Assembly (NCBI GenBank): GCA_021789945.1
Contig: JAJYIS010000003.1
Coordinates: forward strand, 1 to 55,616
Reading direction: 5' to 3'
Length of the DNA: 55,616 bases
Origin: Thermoplasmata archaeon
Lineage (GTDB): Archaea; Thermoplasmatota; Thermoplasmata; UBA10834
The notes below the pieces were generated by a model. The model was not told where the DNA came from, did not search any database, and saw only the letters and a list, made by a program, of their open reading frames with translations. This document shows positions 36,051 through 43,473 of this stretch, one piece after another (position 1 is the stretch's first letter; every line of letters begins with the position of its first letter). The position numbers and the translations under genes were made by a program.

Positions 36051-38225
36051 ATGCGGCGTGAACACATCCAGGCGGTGTCGTCGGCCTTGCTTCTAACCTT
36101 CGTTGTGTTCATCCCGCATCACGTCGACGACACCGCCATCGCCCCGAAGTCGGCCTCACTGGTCTCGTCTCCAGGCCTGCTGATCTCCGAGTTTTACCCC
36201 CGCGGGTTCTGCGACGACGAATACATCGTTCTGTCGAACCAGTGCGGGACCGCTATCGACCTGAAGGGCTGGAACCTGACGGACGGCGAAGGAGTGCTCA
36301 GTTTCGCCTCCGACGTATGGCTCACGGACGGGGAGTCCTTCTCCATCTCATGGAACCAGAGCTCGTTCTGGCAGGCGTATGGGAGACTGCCGGAGGTATC
36401 CATGGACTCGACGGAAGCCGCGAGCGTCATCCGTTCGTCCGGCAGCTTCAGGCTGGGGGATTCCGGAGACTCGATGGCCCTCAGCTCCCCCCAGGGGCGC
36501 CTGGTCGACGCAGTGATCTACGGGTCCACGAGCGAGACCTCCCAAGGATGGTCGGGCGACCCGATGCCGGCGCTCAAGCAGGGCGAGGTCGCCAAGAGGG
36601 TCAGCTCCGCGGGGGCGCTGCTCGACACCGACTCCATGCTTGACTGGATGCCGTTTCGAGAGTTCAGGTACGGCTATACGGACCTCCAGAGCGGCAGCAT
36701 CGACATCGCGGCCGGGAACATCACGACCTTCGTAAGCCCCGACAATTCGCAGGACATCGTGCTGTCAGGGATAGGGCATGCCAGCAAGAGCATCAGCGCA
36801 TGCTCGTACGAGTTCTCCTCGGCGCCGGTCACAAAGGCACTCATCGAGGCGAGGCAGCGCGGGACGGCGGTCCGGCTGCTCGTCGACGGCTCGCCCTCAG
36901 GGGGCATGTCCGAGGGCGAGCTCGCATGCCTTTCCGTCCTCTCGCGGTCCGGGATCGATGTCCGCGCCGTCAAGGGGAACACATCGTCTGGGGTGGTCCA
37001 GCACACCGGCGCTCTCCACGCGAAGTACATCGTCATCGACTCGCTCGTCACGATCGTCATGTCAGAGAACCTCGTCGAGCAGGGCATGCCGACCGACAGG
37101 GTCTTCGGCAACCGCGGCTGGGGTGTCGAGATCCGGGACTCAAGGGCCGCGAGGCTCGTCCTGGACGTGTTTGAGGCAGACTCAAGGCTCTCCAGGAGGG
37201 ACGTCGTCCTTTGGCCCAACTGCCCACTGTTCAACGGCTCTGCGGAGCTGCCCAAGGCCCCGGACCAGAACCACACGCAGGAACTGTTCGAGCCGCTGGT
37301 GAATTCAGAGCCTGCGCGCATCACTCTCTGTCTCTCCCCGGACATCTCGGTCCAGCGGCCGTATCTCGCGCCGCTGATCGAATGCTCCCGCAGGTTCGTC
37401 GGCGAGCAGTTCCAGGCCGACCTCTGGTGGAAGGAGAGATGGAACAACGAATCGATTGTCAGCCCACTCGTCTCGGCCCTGGAGTCATCGCTCAGGGCCG
37501 GCGGGAGCGCGAGGCTGCTGCTCGACTCCTCGTGGTACAACGTTCCAGGGAACGGCGCGGTCGCCGACAGTCTCAGGGAGAACACGACGTTCGCCGGGAT
37601 GGACGGCGAGTTCGCGCTCCTCAATCCCGCCAGCCCTATCACCGCCCTGCACAACAAGGGCGCCGTGATCGACGGGAGAACGACATTGATATCGAGCAAC
37701 AACTGGGTCTTCGCATCGTTTGCCAGGAACCGCGAGCTGGGCGTCCTGGTGTACTCCGTCGAGGTCGCAGACTACTTCACCACGGTCTTCGAATCTGACT
37801 GGAACCCGGACAGGACACCTCCCGTCGCGGACGCGGGGGAGGATATCGAGATGGCCGCGGGCGAGACCGTCATGATCACCTCTGGGCGGTCGTTCGACGA
37901 CCGCGTGATATCCTCAGTCGCATGGGACACGGACGGCGACGGGTTCGCGGAGTCCTGGAACCGGTCGATCGACTACACGGCGAGCGTCCCCGGAGACCAT
38001 CGGATCGTGCTCACCGTGGAAGATTCGTGGGGGAACGCCGCGACCGACGAAATCATCGTGAGCGTGATTGTCCCGGATGGCCCTGGGCGAGCAGGCCATG
38101 GCGGGCTCGTCGGCCTGGAATGGCTCGCTCCGATCGTCCTCGCCGCAGCATACGTCGCATTCAGGAGACGGCGGCCTGCCGGGGAGGCGCCTTCGCGGAA
38201 GCTTAATCATCGACCTAAGGCGTGA
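36051..38225 (+). CDS. Secreted/anchored phospholipase D-family protein (lamin-tail, 2x HKD, PKD, TM)
   Basis: Signal-like N-terminus, LLISE..P...DEYIVL.N (LTD-like), LHAKYIVID and LHNKGAVID, PVADAG PKD repeat, C-terminal TM plus RRRR. Confidence 0.82.
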   Translation: MRREHIQAVSSALLLTFVVFIPHHVDDTAIAPKSASLVSSPGLLISEFYPRGFCDDEYIVLSNQCGTAIDLKGWNLTDGEGVLSFASDVWLTDGESFSISWNQSSFWQAYGRLPEVSMDSTEAASVIRSSGSFRLGDSGDSMALSSPQGRLVDAVIYGSTSETSQGWSGDPMPALKQGEVAKRVSSAGALLDTDSMLDWMPFREFRYGYTDLQSGSIDIAAGNITTFVSPDNSQDIVLSGIGHASKSISACSYEFSSAPVTKALIEARQRGTAVRLLVDGSPSGGMSEGELACLSVLSRSGIDVRAVKGNTSSGVVQHTGALHAKYIVIDSLVTIVMSENLVEQGMPTDRVFGNRGWGVEIRDSRAARLVLDVFEADSRLSRRDVVLWPNCPLFNGSAELPKAPDQNHTQELFEPLVNSEPARITLCLSPDISVQRPYLAPLIECSRRFVGEQFQADLWWKERWNNESIVSPLVSALESSLRAGGSARLLLDSSWYNVPGNGAVADSLRENTTFAGMDGEFALLNPASPITALHNKGAVIDGRTTLISSNNWVFASFARNRELGVLVYSVEVADYFTTVFESDWNPDRTPPVADAGEDIEMAAGETVMITSGRSFDDRVISSVAWDTDGDGFAESWNRSIDYTASVPGDHRIVLTVEDSWGNAATDEIIVSVIVPDGPGRAGHGGLVGLEWLAPIVLAAAYVAFRRRRPAGEAPSRKLNHRPKA

Positions 38226-38687: not shown

Positions 38688-40214
38688 CTACTGATAGCCC
38701 CTCTTGTCGTCGTAAACGTGATAGTTCCAGTACTGGTATGGCGAGGACTCCTTCTCGGAGGTGCTCATGTCGGAGGAGATGGCGCCCATGTAGCTGCCGT
38801 ACCTGTCCTTGATCTGCTCCTCGACCGGCCTCGCCCTCTTCAGCGCCTCCTTGATGTGCGCTGGCTCGATCAGTCTCGCCTGCTCGAGCACCGCGATGTC
38901 GCCCGCGGCCCGGATGAGCCCTCCGAGCTCCCTCAGCCTGAGGGTGAGCGACTTGTCCCTGTTGTCCACGAATTTGGCCCTTCTGCGCGCCTCGTCGATC
39001 AGCATCATGATGGAGTCCCTGGACGCGTGCGGTATCTTCGCGTCCATCGTGATCTCCTGAGCCACGAACTGCGCGAGCCTGGACCTGTTCTCCTCGGTGT
39101 CGGGCATGACGGTCTCCACGAGCACCTCGTACCCTCCGCCGTTTATCCTCGACCTGAGGGGCGAGAGTATGTGCGGCAGGTCCTGGATGTTGCACGCGCC
39201 GACGAATATGAAGTCGCATGGGACATTGTCCACCCTCACGCTCGCGCCCGCGCTCTGCGGGTTCCTCCCCGCTATCGGGAACCGCTTCTCCTGCATCGCC
39301 GTGAGCATGAACCTCTGGAGATGGCCAAGGTGCGGGAGCTCGTCTATGAAGAGGACGCCCTGGTGGGCGCTGTGGATCGCGCCCGCGACGACCCTGTCGT
39401 AGGGCTGGGTGCCCAGCTGCGGGTGGCCCCCGTACGGGTCGTGCCTCACGTCCCCGAGCAGCTCGACCTCGCTTGCCCCGGTTGCCAGGACAAACGGGTT
39501 GCGCGTGATCGGCACTATGACCTTCTTCGGGCTCTCCTTCTCCAGCTCGCGCCTCTTCTCGAGGGCCTGCTGGTCGAGGACCTTGATCATCTCGCCTGCG
39601 CGCTCGAAGACGACGACCTCCTCCTTGCCGAACCTCTTCCTCGTGGTCGTGACGCGCTCTCTCCCGACCATCTGGCCCATGGTGACCTCCATGAGCCCTC
39701 CCAGGAGGTCCCCGAACGGGTTGTTCGCGGTGGACTTCACCTGTGCCACCTTCGCCCTCGAGCACTTAGGGCAGAACCCTTCCTTGGGCGACGAGTATGT
39801 CCCGCAGTTCGAGCACCTGTAGCCCAGGCGCTCAGCGACGCTCACAGGGGCCTCCTTGGGGTCGATGTACTCCCCCTCGGCGTACCCCTTCGACTCGAGC
39901 TCCTTCTCGACCTCGTCGATGGACCTGACCTCGACTAGCGGGCGCTCCGGGTTCTCAGGGTTGTGGACGACCCTGATCTCCTCCGTCGGGCGGGCAAGGT
40001 GCAGCGAGAGCGCCTGTGCGATCATCGACTTGCCAGTGCCGGGAGGGCCCACGAGCAGGAAATGCCTCCTCTGGGACGCCGCGATCCTCGCCAGCCTGAC
40101 GGCTTCCTCTTGGCCTATGACCCTTTCAAGGGGGTCCGTCGGGACCTTGATGTCCTCTGAGGATTCGATGTCTTCCAGCAGACTAGCTGTCTTCTCGGGA
40201 GTCATGAAGTTCAA
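38688..40214 (-). CDS. LonB-related AAA+ ATPase lacking protease domain and TM insert, with C4 zinc finger
   Basis: VIGQEEA, GPPGTGKS, LLGDVRHDP, GAIH.AH.GVLFIDE, LRSRI..GYEV, LRLRELGGL; ends ~45 aa after the helical subdomain. Confidence 0.85.
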   Translation of the reverse strand: MNFMTPEKTASLLEDIESSEDIKVPTDPLERVIGQEEAVRLARIAASQRRHFLLVGPPGTGKSMIAQALSLHLARPTEEIRVVHNPENPERPLVEVRSIDEVEKELESKGYAEGEYIDPKEAPVSVAERLGYRCSNCGTYSSPKEGFCPKCSRAKVAQVKSTANNPFGDLLGGLMEVTMGQMVGRERVTTTRKRFGKEEVVVFERAGEMIKVLDQQALEKRRELEKESPKKVIVPITRNPFVLATGASEVELLGDVRHDPYGGHPQLGTQPYDRVVAGAIHSAHQGVLFIDELPHLGHLQRFMLTAMQEKRFPIAGRNPQSAGASVRVDNVPCDFIFVGACNIQDLPHILSPLRSRINGGGYEVLVETVMPDTEENRSRLAQFVAQEITMDAKIPHASRDSIMMLIDEARRRAKFVDNRDKSLTLRLRELGGLIRAAGDIAVLEQARLIEPAHIKEALKRARPVEEQIKDRYGSYMGAISSDMSTSEKESSPYQYWNYHVYDDKRGYQ

Positions 40215-40220
40215 CGGTGC

Positions 40221-41492
40221 TCAGCTGAGGTCTTCCTTCGTCAAGACCTCGACATTTGTCGGGAGCTTGGCGATGTTGCCCAACTTAACACCGACGACCG
40301 CGCTGATATTCTTTTCCACAGCGAGGTCGAGTATCCTCTGGGTGATGATCCCGTCGAGCACGACCGCGGTCACGACCTCGGTCGTCTCCTTGAGCGTGTC
40401 TGCGAGCAGGCTAACATGGACTTCCTTGATGACGTTCCCGGCCTCGCCCATCAGCTTCGCCTTCGACGTGTTGCTCAGCTCTTCAAGGACTCCCTTGTAC
40501 CTGAACTGGTCCGGGTTCAGCCTCTTCCCGGGCTTCTCCTCGACTGGCCTCGGCCTGGGCTGCTCCCTGTGCTTCCCACGGTCGTCCTCGTGCCTGTGCC
40601 TGTCCTGGCGGTCGTCCTCGCGTCTTACCATTTTTTCTCCATTCTTTGTCTGGCCGCCCTGGAGGTTGAGCATTTCTGCGAACTGGTCTCCCGGGACCTT
40701 GTTCCTCAGGCACTTCACGATCTGCTTCTGCGTGAGCTCCTCGACCTCTTGGCCTGCAGGAGCCCTCGAGATGAAGTCTATCTCTGCGACCTGAAGCAGC
40801 TCCCTCAGTATGAGCTCTCCGCCCCTGTCGCCGTCCACGAACGCCGTGACGACCTTCTCCTTCGCGAGGTCGATGATCGTCTGCGGGACGTTCGTCCCCT
40901 CGACCGCGATCACGTTCTTGATGCCGTACTTCAGGAGGTTGATCACATCGGACCGGCCCTCGAGGATTATGATGGCGTCTGAGTCGTCGATGTTCGGGCC
41001 CGCCGGCAGCCTCTCCTTTCCGTAGTGGACGACCTCCTCGATCTGCACGGACTGCCTCACGGAGTCCTCCAGGTCCAGCCCGCTCGTCTTCGAGGCCTTC
41101 AGCATCTCGTTCAGGAGCTTCTTCGCCCTCTCGATTATCTTGTTGCGCTTGGATATCCTGACATCCTCGATCTTCTCTACGGAGATCCTGGCCTTGCACG
41201 GCCCGACCCTGTCGATCGTCTCGAGGGACGATGCCAGGATTGCGGTCTCCACCTGGTCGAGGCTCGAGGGCACATACACCACTCCCTCGGACTTACCCTT
41301 GGTGGCTCCGACCTCCACCTCGATCCTCCCGATCCTTCCGCTCTTCTGAAGGTCCCTGAGGTCGAGCTCGTCGCCCAAAAGCCCTTCCGTCTGCCCGAAG
41401 ATGGCGCCTACGATATCTGGTTTCTCGACTATTCCGTCCGTCGCTAGCCTTGCCTGTATCAAGTATTTCGTTGTACTTGGATCTATGTCCAT
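40221..41492 (-). CDS. dnaG: Archaeal DnaG (TOPRIM; exosome-associated)
   Basis: VGAIFGQTEGLLG..LDLRDLQKSGRIGRI, EGRSDV, DGDRGG. Confidence 0.95.
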   Translation of the reverse strand: MDIDPSTTKYLIQARLATDGIVEKPDIVGAIFGQTEGLLGDELDLRDLQKSGRIGRIEVEVGATKGKSEGVVYVPSSLDQVETAILASSLETIDRVGPCKARISVEKIEDVRISKRNKIIERAKKLLNEMLKASKTSGLDLEDSVRQSVQIEEVVHYGKERLPAGPNIDDSDAIIILEGRSDVINLLKYGIKNVIAVEGTNVPQTIIDLAKEKVVTAFVDGDRGGELILRELLQVAEIDFISRAPAGQEVEELTQKQIVKCLRNKVPGDQFAEMLNLQGGQTKNGEKMVRREDDRQDRHRHEDDRGKHREQPRPRPVEEKPGKRLNPDQFRYKGVLEELSNTSKAKLMGEAGNVIKEVHVSLLADTLKETTEVVTAVVLDGIITQRILDLAVEKNISAVVGVKLGNIAKLPTNVEVLTKEDLS

Positions 41493-41745
41493 CGTACCTA
41501 CCTCTCTTCGAAAAACAGCGTTGCCAACTCCCTGCCGCTCCTTCGGCCGAATCGCCCTGCAGTGCCGGGCGCGTTCTGCCAGCGGCCGTTGACAGACATC
41601 TATTCAATGGAGACCTGGAGGCGCTCGACGAGCGGGGCCAGGGCCCCGAAGACACTCATTTGATACTTGGGATGATATGTCAGATTGAGATTTGATGCGC
41701 TGTTCTTCGGAACTATTATCGCGCCACTGATTAAATACTTTTCGA
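41493..41745 (-). promoter_or_regulatory. dnaG promoter and putative structured 5' leader RNA
   Basis: BRE/TATA CGAAAAGTATTTAA (~41744-41731); 12-bp closing helix 41709-41698 with 41520-41509; internal hairpins; GAGGT SD. Confidence 0.55.
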
Positions 41746-41809
41746 TACGCCCTATAAAATTCGAGAACGAGCCGGCCAGTATGTCGGAGCCGGCTGTCCG
41801 GCCGCCCTG

Positions 41810-42019
41810 TCAGCCCCCGGAGACCACGGCAACCAGTTTGACCTCGTCCCCGTCCTCCAGCACCTCGTCGAGTGGAATCGGTGCCCGGTCCTTGACCGCA
41901 ATCCATGCGTCCGGGAAGAGTTTGAGGGACCTGATTAGGCCCTCGACGGTCGTGCCCTCTTCGACCTCGACCGTCTCCGTCCTCTTCCTGGTGGGAAGCA
42001 TTTGGACCTTGATCCTCAT
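41810..42019 (-). CDS. Ubiquitin-like sulfur carrier (SAMP/ThiS/MoaD family)
   Basis: 69 aa beta-grasp-like sequence, L.DGDEV, C-terminal VSGG. Confidence 0.9.
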   Translation of the reverse strand: MRIKVQMLPTRKRTETVEVEEGTTVEGLIRSLKLFPDAWIAVKDRAPIPLDEVLEDGDEVKLVAVVSGG

Positions 42020-42129
42020 GTGATTCGCGGGGACGGTTATCAAATGGTTTGGGATAACTCTTTGCCAAGCAGACGGCGCGCCGTCCGCCGGGCTGCATCA
42101 TGGACCCATGAGTGCGGCCTTCGGGGCCT

Positions 42130-43473
42130 CTAGTGTCGCCTTAGCACGATGAACAGCGCCAATGCTACCAGGGCCGCCTCTGAAGAGCCGATGACGAGCC
42201 AGATCACAGAATCCGGGATCGGGTTGCTGGATGCTTGGGTTCCTAACACGGCGATCGTGACGGTGTCGTTATCCGACCTCGCCTCCGCATCCATCACGGT
42301 AAGGGTTATGACATACCTGCCTGGCGTGACGAAATGGAACATCGGCTTCTGGCCAAACATGAGCTCCCACGTTCCATTGTAACGGAACTTCCAGATGTAA
42401 CCCATATCTGCAATGTCACCAACGCTCCCCGAGCCGTTGAACCGGAACCACGTTCCGGAAGAGATAGTCTCGTCAGCTCCCGCCTCGGCCATCGGCAACC
42501 TGCCTCCAGGGCCAGTCACCTGGACTGTGAGTGAGTCCGACCCCAACGGATTCATCCACTCGTCCTTGATTGTCAGAATGACAACATAGGTTCCAGTCTT
42601 GTTGAACGTATAATTGGCGACCATTCCGGACAGAATGACGGGAGAATCGACCACCAACATCCACTCGCAGTACGCTGTCGGCACGTAGACATCCGATGCC
42701 GAGCCGTTGAACGTCACCGCCTCCCCGACTGCCACCGTCTGGTTGGGACCCGCTTCGATCAAGCCGGGCCATGGCATGCTCTCGACGTACACACACATCT
42801 GGTCGGAGGCGTTCAGTCCGCCTGAATCGGTCACGGTCAGGCTGACGACGTATGATCCGATGGTGCTGAAGACATAGCACGCCGTGCACCCCCAGAGTCT
42901 GACGGGAGTCCCGCAGTCCTCAAAGGTCCAGAGGTAGTCGATGATGCCGACATCATCCGAGGACATCGAGCCATCAAACACGATCGACTGGCCAACGGCA
43001 GTGCGACTGTCAGGCCCGGCTTCAACGATCGGAGGGGAGTTGGGGCCGGTCGATGGCAATACGGTAATCGTGACGGAAGTCGTGTTGGACGATCCCCAAC
43101 AGTTCCGGACTGTCAGCCAAACAACGTAGGTCCCCGTCTTGTTGAACATCTCGATGACAATCATGCCGAAGACATCTCTTGTCTCGTTGCTGACAATGTA
43201 GGACCATTCCCAAGATATGACGAAATACTCATCTGTCGAGGCCGATGCGTCAAGGGTGACCTTGTTCCCCACGATGACAGTAGTAGGGTTCGCAGAAGCG
43301 ACTGCCACTGGGGGGGAGTGCTCTGTTGTCTCCTGCGCGACACATCTCGACGGGACCGTGCCAGGGTCTCCTGGGATTCCGGCGATTCCCGGAAGGATGA
43401 ACGAGGACGCCATCATCAGGGCGAGCGAGGCCCTGATTACCCCAGCTGACTCCATGCCTCCGTCGCCCCCCAT
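42130..43473 (-). CDS. PKD-repeat cell-surface protein
   Basis: Four PKD-like repeats (e.g. AGPD..V..FDGS.S.D..W.F..G.Y.V.LTV.D), signal peptide, C-terminal TM plus RRH. Confidence 0.85.
   Translation of the reverse strand: MGGDGGMESAGVIRASLALMMASSFILPGIAGIPGDPGTVPSRCVAQETTEHSPPVAVASANPTTVIVGNKVTLDASASTDEYFVISWEWSYIVSNETRDVFGMIVIEMFNKTGTYVVWLTVRNCWGSSNTTSVTITVLPSTGPNSPPIVEAGPDSRTAVGQSIVFDGSMSSDDVGIIDYLWTFEDCGTPVRLWGCTACYVFSTIGSYVVSLTVTDSGGLNASDQMCVYVESMPWPGLIEAGPNQTVAVGEAVTFNGSASDVYVPTAYCEWMLVVDSPVILSGMVANYTFNKTGTYVVILTIKDEWMNPLGSDSLTVQVTGPGGRLPMAEAGADETISSGTWFRFNGSGSVGDIADMGYIWKFRYNGTWELMFGQKPMFHFVTPGRYVITLTVMDAEARSDNDTVTIAVLGTQASSNPIPDSVIWLVIGSSEAALVALALFIVLRRH

Follow-up and report, generated by a model that had tools for sequence, protein, structure and literature searches.

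Results

The dnaG locus and its leader

The window, by which we mean the whole stretch of 55,616 nucleotides analysed here, carries on its minus strand a dnaG gene (40221-41492, ATG at 41492) that encodes a 423-residue protein with a Toprim domain. DnaG is encoded by a universal archaeal gene, and its role as a primase or as an exosome subunit is debated. A gap of 317 nt without a credible gene separates dnaG from a SAMP2/ThiS-like ubiquitin-like gene on the same strand (41810-42043), which ends in ...SGG and lies directly upstream of the leader described below. This C-terminal ...SGG followed by a stop codon precedes the leader throughout the order, and the gene order SAMP-leader-dnaG is thus conserved. 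On the other side, an AAA+ ATPase gene (Mg-chelatase/MCM-like P-loop with a zinc-ribbon match; 38688-40214, minus strand) starts a few bases past the dnaG stop codon. It is probably co-transcribed with dnaG and would therefore also stand under the leader. Farther out, secreted-type proteins with four PKD domains (42130-43473, minus strand) and with phospholipase-D, lamin-tail and PKD domains (36051-38225, plus strand) are encoded. On the plus strand, 42175-42254 resembles a C/D-box snoRNA weakly (SNORD15; E = 0.17, with 19.8 bits where the threshold is 75). This match lies opposite a gene with PKD domains and is most likely due to chance. The DNA sequencing run that best matches the locus is a mine-drainage metagenome. 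Two metatranscriptome runs from the same study gave no contigs over 40900-42200, a result that speaks neither for nor against transcription.

An earlier note on this DNA had proposed that the region upstream of dnaG folds into a structured leader closed by a 12-bp long-range helix and ending just before the Shine-Dalgarno (SD) sequence, and our analysis bears out this outline. All leader features lie on the minus strand. A promoter is predicted from the sequence at 41744-41730, with a purine-rich BRE-like element (CGAAAAG) and the TATA-like TATTTAAT (41737-41730). About 25 nt after the latter begins CGAAGAACAGCG (41709-41698), so that a transcript start near 41709, predicted from the TATA element only, is plausible. 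CGAAGAACAGCG forms the 5' strand of the closing helix, P1, and pairs with CGCTGTTTTTCG (41520-41509) in 11 Watson-Crick pairs and one G-U pair, which is an A-C mismatch on the opposite strand. P1 is present in the minimum-energy fold of the window leader, and its 3' strand, CGCUGUUUUUCG, contains a run of five U (41515-41511). The SD sequence GAGGT (41504-41500) follows 4 nt past P1 and 7 nt before the ATG, and is complementary to the 3' end of the 16S rRNA (GGAUCACCUCCU, contig C93).

Taken by itself, the window sequence is marginal evidence for structure. The fold of the window leader has a z-score of -1.51, with 14 out of 200 shuffled sequences folding equally well. Scoring 5' against 3' regions in the manner of RNAduplex was uninformative because huge loops are allowed, and we used an ungapped helix score instead: P1 scores 29, compared with 21.0 ± 3.5 in shuffles (p = 0.04), and a helix as good as this one is found upstream of 5 out of 150 control open reading frames from the same genome. 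It is the comparative evidence, rather than the single sequence, that sets the leader apart from chance.

Conservation and linkage to dnaG

We located dnaG in 47 of the 49 genomes of the order and read 43 upstream regions; of the four left out, two sit at the edge of a contig and two belong to dnaG matches that are truncated at the N terminus. The 5' and 3' blocks are kept in 43/43 leaders (four of them recognized with a looser pattern), which share one layout: a TATA element, a block like CGAAGAACAGCG, conserved inner blocks, a block like GCUGUUUUUC and an SD sequence. The TATA-like heptamer is found in 43/43, its first base lying 27-32 nt before leader nucleotide 1 in 38 of them. P1 is the top-scoring long-range helix in 37/43 leaders, and its mean predicted probability is 0.84 in 45 leaders. 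Fold z-scores are negative throughout (mean -3.6; 38/43 below -2). A folding energy no better than that of shuffled controls, named in the earlier note as an argument against the structure, is therefore nearly what the window alone shows (z = -1.5), but not what the family shows.

RNAalifold run on a plain MAFFT alignment found only P1, the variable arms being misaligned. In an alignment of 18 sequences made with a covariance model (R1), 90.2% of 1009 cells are paired, compared with 37-43% for slid partners, and 28/63 pairs change on both sides, a number reached by 0/500 shuffles; these figures are inflated by the fitting of the alignment to the model and by the predominance of one genus in it. 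Compensatory changes thus accompany the conservation of the collected dnaG upstream regions in this R1-fitted alignment. In 113 cells the pair is a G-U, which becomes a mismatch on the opposite strand, and the paired fraction drops from 90.2% on the dnaG strand to 79.0% there. The RNA therefore lies on the dnaG strand. Taken together, the gap upstream of dnaG holds more than chance structure, which confirms the original observation.

R1 was built from four sequences and is narrow. It misses genus g4 (0/12) and family f2 (0/3), although the leaders of both are plainly homologous by eye. Matches are returned from 24/49 genomes, one per genome, and from 17/18 members within the genus of the window, and every match lies 15-25 nt upstream of dnaG and on its strand. 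In its own genome the leader is single-copy, with one R1 match and no other or partial copies detected by BLAST. A search of genome contigs with a gapped 12+6-base pattern gave only chance matches in bacteria, and these loci (L034-L113) were set aside. The distance from P1 to the ATG is only 15-35 nt, which leaves no space for a second promoter together with an SD-bearing leader. This tight spacing, along with the strict same-strand association with dnaG, is our main reason for reading the element as a cis-acting leader, and the cis-regulatory interpretation offered in the earlier note is the best one available.

The same domain could in principle be a separate, stable small RNA of ∼200 nt that ends at the U5 run, with dnaG expressed only by read-through, and that acts in trans or as a terminator-type attenuator rather than through the SD. 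Its promoter is nearly invariant, stable RNAs typically have their 5' and 3' ends paired, and the U5 run ends the domain. Oligo-U ends archaeal transcripts, coding sequence seldom contains T5 runs (0.04 per kb), and a run of at least five T is kept at the domain end in 31/43 leaders. In 11/43 leaders, however, the run is broken (T4 in one further case), including 10/12 leaders of genus g4, and the pairing is kept or improved there by changes from G-U to G-C. It is thus the pairing rather than the U run that is preserved in these leaders. Within the 50 nt that follow ∼1450 predicted gene ends we find only 30 T5 runs, and gene starts are preceded by at least as many; T5 is therefore not clearly the terminator of this organism. 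The R1 search never found the element away from dnaG, and a trans-acting RNA would not need an anti-SD segment that tracks the dnaG SD (see below). We consider the small RNA rather unlikely and retain the reading as a leader of the dnaG mRNA.

Interior fold

Consensus folds of subsets of the genus converge on a three-way junction of P1, P2 and P3, which in the window lies only 1.6 kcal/mol above the minimum free energy. P2 (GCAUC, 41698-41694, with GAUGU, 41600-41596) encloses the helix P2a (41688-41684 with 41608-41604), a conserved hairpin (41683-41651; helices 5 and 6) made by block B (CUGACAUAUCAUC) and block C (AUGAGUGUC; GUGAAUGUC in relatives), and a variable hairpin with internal loops, H1 (41647-41609; helices 7 and 8). 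Block D (AGAUGUCUGUCAAC, 41601-41588) provides the 3' strand of P2 and the 5' strand of P3 at the junction. P3 (UGUCAA/UUGRCA; helix 9), formed in the window by UGUCAAC (41594-41588) and GUUGGCA (41528-41522), closes a long, irregular and variable hairpin arm, H2 (41587-41529; helices 10-13). Among the inner helices named in the earlier note, CGCTC/GAGCG, GCCGCT/AGCGGC and CGCCC/GGGCG are part of the predicted fold; CGGGGCC/GGCCCCG is absent from it and would leave a 2-nt loop, GGGG/CUCC and CCUGG/CCAGG forming there instead.

Changes on both sides of a pair fall in H1, P2a, P3 and H2. They are seen in 10/10 pairs of helices 7 and 8, in 10/13 pairs of helices 10-13 and in 4/9 pairs of helix 9, where, for example, an A-U pair becomes G-C in six sequences. 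Hardly any variation is seen within the order in P1, in P2 or in the hairpin of blocks B and C, and there they rest on conservation and not on covariation; the pairs of P2, being invariant within the genus, are accordingly not proven by covariation.

The pattern of change also bears on a leader peptide, in which an AUG in block C would open a short frame whose translation controls dnaG. The window has a 19-codon frame (41659-41600, minus strand) that ends at a UAG in block D, and similar frames of 15-21 codons occur in nine further members of the genus. The frames range, however, from 9 codons to open-ended, their peptides are not conserved, and no ATG frame of at least 8 codons is found in 5/12 leaders of genus g4. 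Changes in H1 keep base pairs, not codons, and the block C AUG is not preceded by an SD sequence at a workable distance. A leader peptide is thus barely credible.

A box H/ACA guide RNA, which carries a K-turn or K-loop in the upper stem of a hairpin and an ACA box immediately 3' of that hairpin, was considered and rejected: alignment A1 has no conserved ACA after H1 or after H2/P3, its only conserved ACA sits in block B, 5' of the hairpins, and there is no match in Rfam. A K-turn needs GA after a 3-nt bulge; block B reads AUCAUC after UGACAU, and no K-turn was recognized.

Codons 1 to 8-10 of dnaG itself (ATGGACATAGATCC..., 41492-41463, minus strand) are nearly identical in nucleotides throughout the order and in much of the class, and this near-identity includes third positions (window and homologous codons, loci L002-L030). 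The GGACAU in these codons is complementary to the AUGUC that blocks C and D contain, and the first codons may therefore be involved in the leader structure.

An anti-Shine-Dalgarno segment enclosed by P1

Leader nucleotides 17-26 hold a short segment complementary to the SD sequence. In the window this anti-SD is AUCUC (41691-41687), which overlaps P2a and can pair with GAGGU. In the predicted fold of the full window leader the SD sequence is fully unpaired. When the 5' strand of P1 is deleted in silico, the SD pairs with the segment right after P1 and P2, and its accessibility falls from 1.0 to 0.12 in the window. Across leaders the same deletion lowers SD accessibility in 22/42 and raises it in 5, an effect partly built into the method, since nested folding cannot judge a pseudoknot. 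The pairing between anti-SD and SD crosses P1 and P2.

The best complement of the SD starts at leader nucleotides 17-20 in 28/43 leaders, the other 15 having no anti-SD there, and it changes with the type of SD. ACUUC is found with GAAGU, AUCUC or CAUCUC with GAGGU(G), UCGUCU with AGGCGA, GCCUC with GAGGC, and ACCC with GGGU. A leader's own anti-SD and SD score at least 11 in 22/35 unique pairs, compared with 19% of between-genus combinations (permutation p = 5e-5, ignoring relatedness); control windows at nucleotides 37-60 and 61-84 do not track the SD (p = 0.42 and 0.28). Two marks of an SD-sequestering element are thus seen in these leaders, a segment complementary to the downstream SD and, with relatedness ignored, joint change of the two. 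A different kind of pairing near the SD is possible in leaders of genera g2 and g4 (for example L162 and L164), where a small hairpin in the last ∼25 nt before the ATG can mask the SD. These hairpins, CUCAC-AAG-GUGAG or UCGCC-ACAGA-GGCGA, differ in sequence between genera.

As only 4-11 nt lie between P1 and the SD, we infer, on general grounds of loop length, that the anti-SD:SD pairing and the closing helix, hereafter the clamp, cannot form together. Computed energies place the anti-SD state 5-14 kcal/mol above the clamp state, and it would therefore need a trigger.

The high stability of the clamp state over its alternative also suits a constitutive element, in which the 5'-terminal helix protects the dnaG mRNA from decay that depends on its 5' end, or fixes its rate of translation, with no switching. 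Helices at the 5' terminus stabilize mRNAs in bacteria, and P1 sits at the very 5' end with the high predicted probability given above. Protection would, however, not call for conserved junction blocks and a pair of maintained arms spanning ∼180 nt, and an anti-SD that follows the SD would be needless. A purely constitutive role thus seems distinctly improbable to us.

The leader beyond the order

The phylum, going by the taxa of the closest DnaG clusters, is Thermoplasmatota. From the remainder of the class we sampled 46 regions upstream of dnaG, and from other classes of the phylum 40, of which 31 were kept after removal of nine whose start was uncertain or whose sequence was too short. The clamp was sought as the best ungapped helix between positions -300 to -90 and -50 to -8. 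A clamp with p ≤ 0.05 is found in 18/43 regions of the order, 17/46 from the rest of the class and 6/31 from other classes, compared with 5/150 controls. A helix of the same make-up and placement is seen in families f2, f3, f4, f6, f7, f10, f12, f13, f14, f15, f16, f20, f21, f26 and f29, and outside the class in f36, f37, f39, f46 and f52; several of these assignments were made by eye, and a few automatic picks were wrong helices. Among the regions read, no clamp was found in about half of the sampled families, including f8, f9, f11, f17, f19 (0/4), f23 and f24.

Across families the 5' strand of the clamp is purine-rich and begins ∼25 nt after the TATA box, and the 3' strand is U-rich and lies 15-35 nt before the ATG. 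The pairs that flank the A/U run differ among families (GGGAAAAUGGUC/GGCUAUUUUCCC, GCAGAAAACUC/GAGUUUUCUGC and others); at one flanking position we counted 22 CG, 8 GC, 6 UA and 6 AU pairs and 4 non-pairs. In family f6 (L178-L181) the 5' strand of the clamp, GGGAA..., can also form a local hairpin with a nearby UUCCC in the first ∼20 nt of the leader (GGGAAAUGCGUUUCCC, GGGAAGCAUACUGUUCCC and others, with varying loops); judging from the sequences, this hairpin could be a built-in competitor of the clamp.

Leader interiors outside the order differ and are often only 100-130 nt long, blocks B to D being confined to the order. They usually begin with a G-poor tract rich in UCAC/UCAU: clusters with p ≤ 0.05 are found in 57/121 regions, with a mean G content of 0.14 compared with 0.24 overall. 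The window, with one such motif, is a weak case. In nested full-leader folds the SD pairs only locally, and no pairing with the UCAY tract was seen. The anti-SD signal outside the order is weak, 12/18 cases beating interior control windows (mean 12.0 vs. 11.1); family f14 offers a clear case, with UCACCUC facing GAGGUGA.

These comparisons weigh on a riboswitch, in which the three-way junction with its invariant blocks B, C and D would bind a small molecule and P1 would be the switching helix. A three-way junction that P1 closes beside the SD, and in which the junction nucleotides are invariant while the arms vary, is the usual layout of an aptamer, and the anti-SD alternative resembles an expression platform. 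Yet blocks B to D are conserved only within the order, and other families keep the clamp and the G-poor, UCAY-rich tract with different interiors of often ∼100-130 nt. Because the interiors differ in this way between families outside the order, the interior is unlike an aptamer core. There is also no evident metabolic link for dnaG and no match to an Rfam riboswitch, and we regard ligand sensing by the leader as highly improbable.

Tests against known RNA families

A covariance-model scan of positions 40500-42800 against Rfam 15 returned no minus-strand match in 41493-41745, in line with the suggestion in the earlier note that the RNA is undescribed and shows no hallmark motifs of RNase P or SRP RNA. 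Twenty diverse leaders likewise had 0 matches at E ≤ 1 when all 4227 models were scanned. The archaeal RNase P RNA of this genome (RF00373, 187 bits) is on contig C127 and its archaeal SRP RNA (RF01857, 163.5 bits) on contig C144. A full-text literature search, which covered journals outside subscription, found no description of an archaeal dnaG leader. Judged by sequence comparison, the leader is a real, undescribed and phylogenetically broad RNA of dnaG.

Discussion

Our data are, on balance, best explained by a ∼200-nt structured 5' leader of the dnaG mRNA in which the clamp keeps the anti-SD off the SD, so that loss of the clamp stops translation, an explanation in which we place moderate confidence. 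It draws on what the comparisons show, namely a conserved and structured RNA that is linked to dnaG and an anti-SD that co-varies with the SD. The leader probably controls how much DnaG protein is made.

We propose that a strong TATA promoter of its own drives a leader transcript that would continue into dnaG. The first 11-12 purine-rich nucleotides would pair with a U-rich strand, the end of which is 4-11 nt from the SD, forming a clamp that closes the domain (a three-way junction in the order), with the short, pyrimidine-rich anti-SD just inside. With the clamp closed, the anti-SD would be held at the far end of a stack of ∼16 bp and partly locked in P2a, leaving the SD free for DnaG to be made. 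Should the 5' strand be occupied, melted or trimmed, the anti-SD could pair with the SD and translation would stop. Inferred in this scheme are where the transcript begins and stops, that the two pairings exclude each other, in which direction control runs and what sets it off.

As a first guess, the trigger might be the binding of a protein to the A-rich 5' strand, perhaps of DnaG together with the exosome. DnaG is a candidate because DnaG and Rrp4 are reported to confer a poly(A) preference on the exosome (PMC7667871). Taken to its limit, the idea becomes a pan-archaeal feedback, in which DnaG would open the clamp on its own mRNA, the anti-SD would close the SD, the exosome would perhaps be loaded, and today's leaders would be versions of one ancient circuit; we hold this to be unlikely and mention it as speculation. 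Were the trigger indeed DnaG or the exosome, no autoregulatory loop would have been described before this one for RNA decay in archaea.

Conservation of a leader before one gene across an order, with a recognizable core in many families of the phylum, suggests tight post-transcriptional control of DnaG dosage. The leader is a candidate new RNA family for annotation, and the nucleotides to mutate can be named: the two clamp strands, and AUCUC versus GAGGU.

To our knowledge, hardly any cis-regulatory mRNA structures have been described in archaea. Archaeal leaders that mediate autoregulation include those of L7Ae, which binds a K-turn in its own 5' untranslated region, and of ribosomal protein L1, and both control translation. 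The dnaG leader resembles them as an archaeal, cis-acting mRNA structure, for which translational control is our proposal, but it is much larger and we saw no rRNA mimicry. The 5' untranslated region of E. coli rne (Rfam RF00040) and the pnp leader are autoregulatory leaders of RNA-decay enzymes. Like these, the dnaG leader is long, structured and placed before a gene whose product belongs to the RNA-degradation machinery, and by analogy it would be a plausible platform for feedback by the product of its own gene; unlike these, it is archaeal, has no match to them in sequence or structure, and combines a 5'-3' clamp with an anti-SD. Another parallel is the SD sequestration by bacterial riboswitches and translational operators. 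There, as in the dnaG leader, an anti-SD is complementary to the SD, in our case changing with it, and in our model a competing helix, P1, would likewise decide whether the anti-SD gains access to the SD. In contrast to the bacterial platforms, the conserved core of the dnaG leader is not kept beyond the order, and its competing helix connects the 5' terminus with the stretch just before the SD. SD sequestration gated by a competing helix, the kind of control that we propose, is known from bacteria; the 5'-3' clamp layout and the gene that it serves are new.
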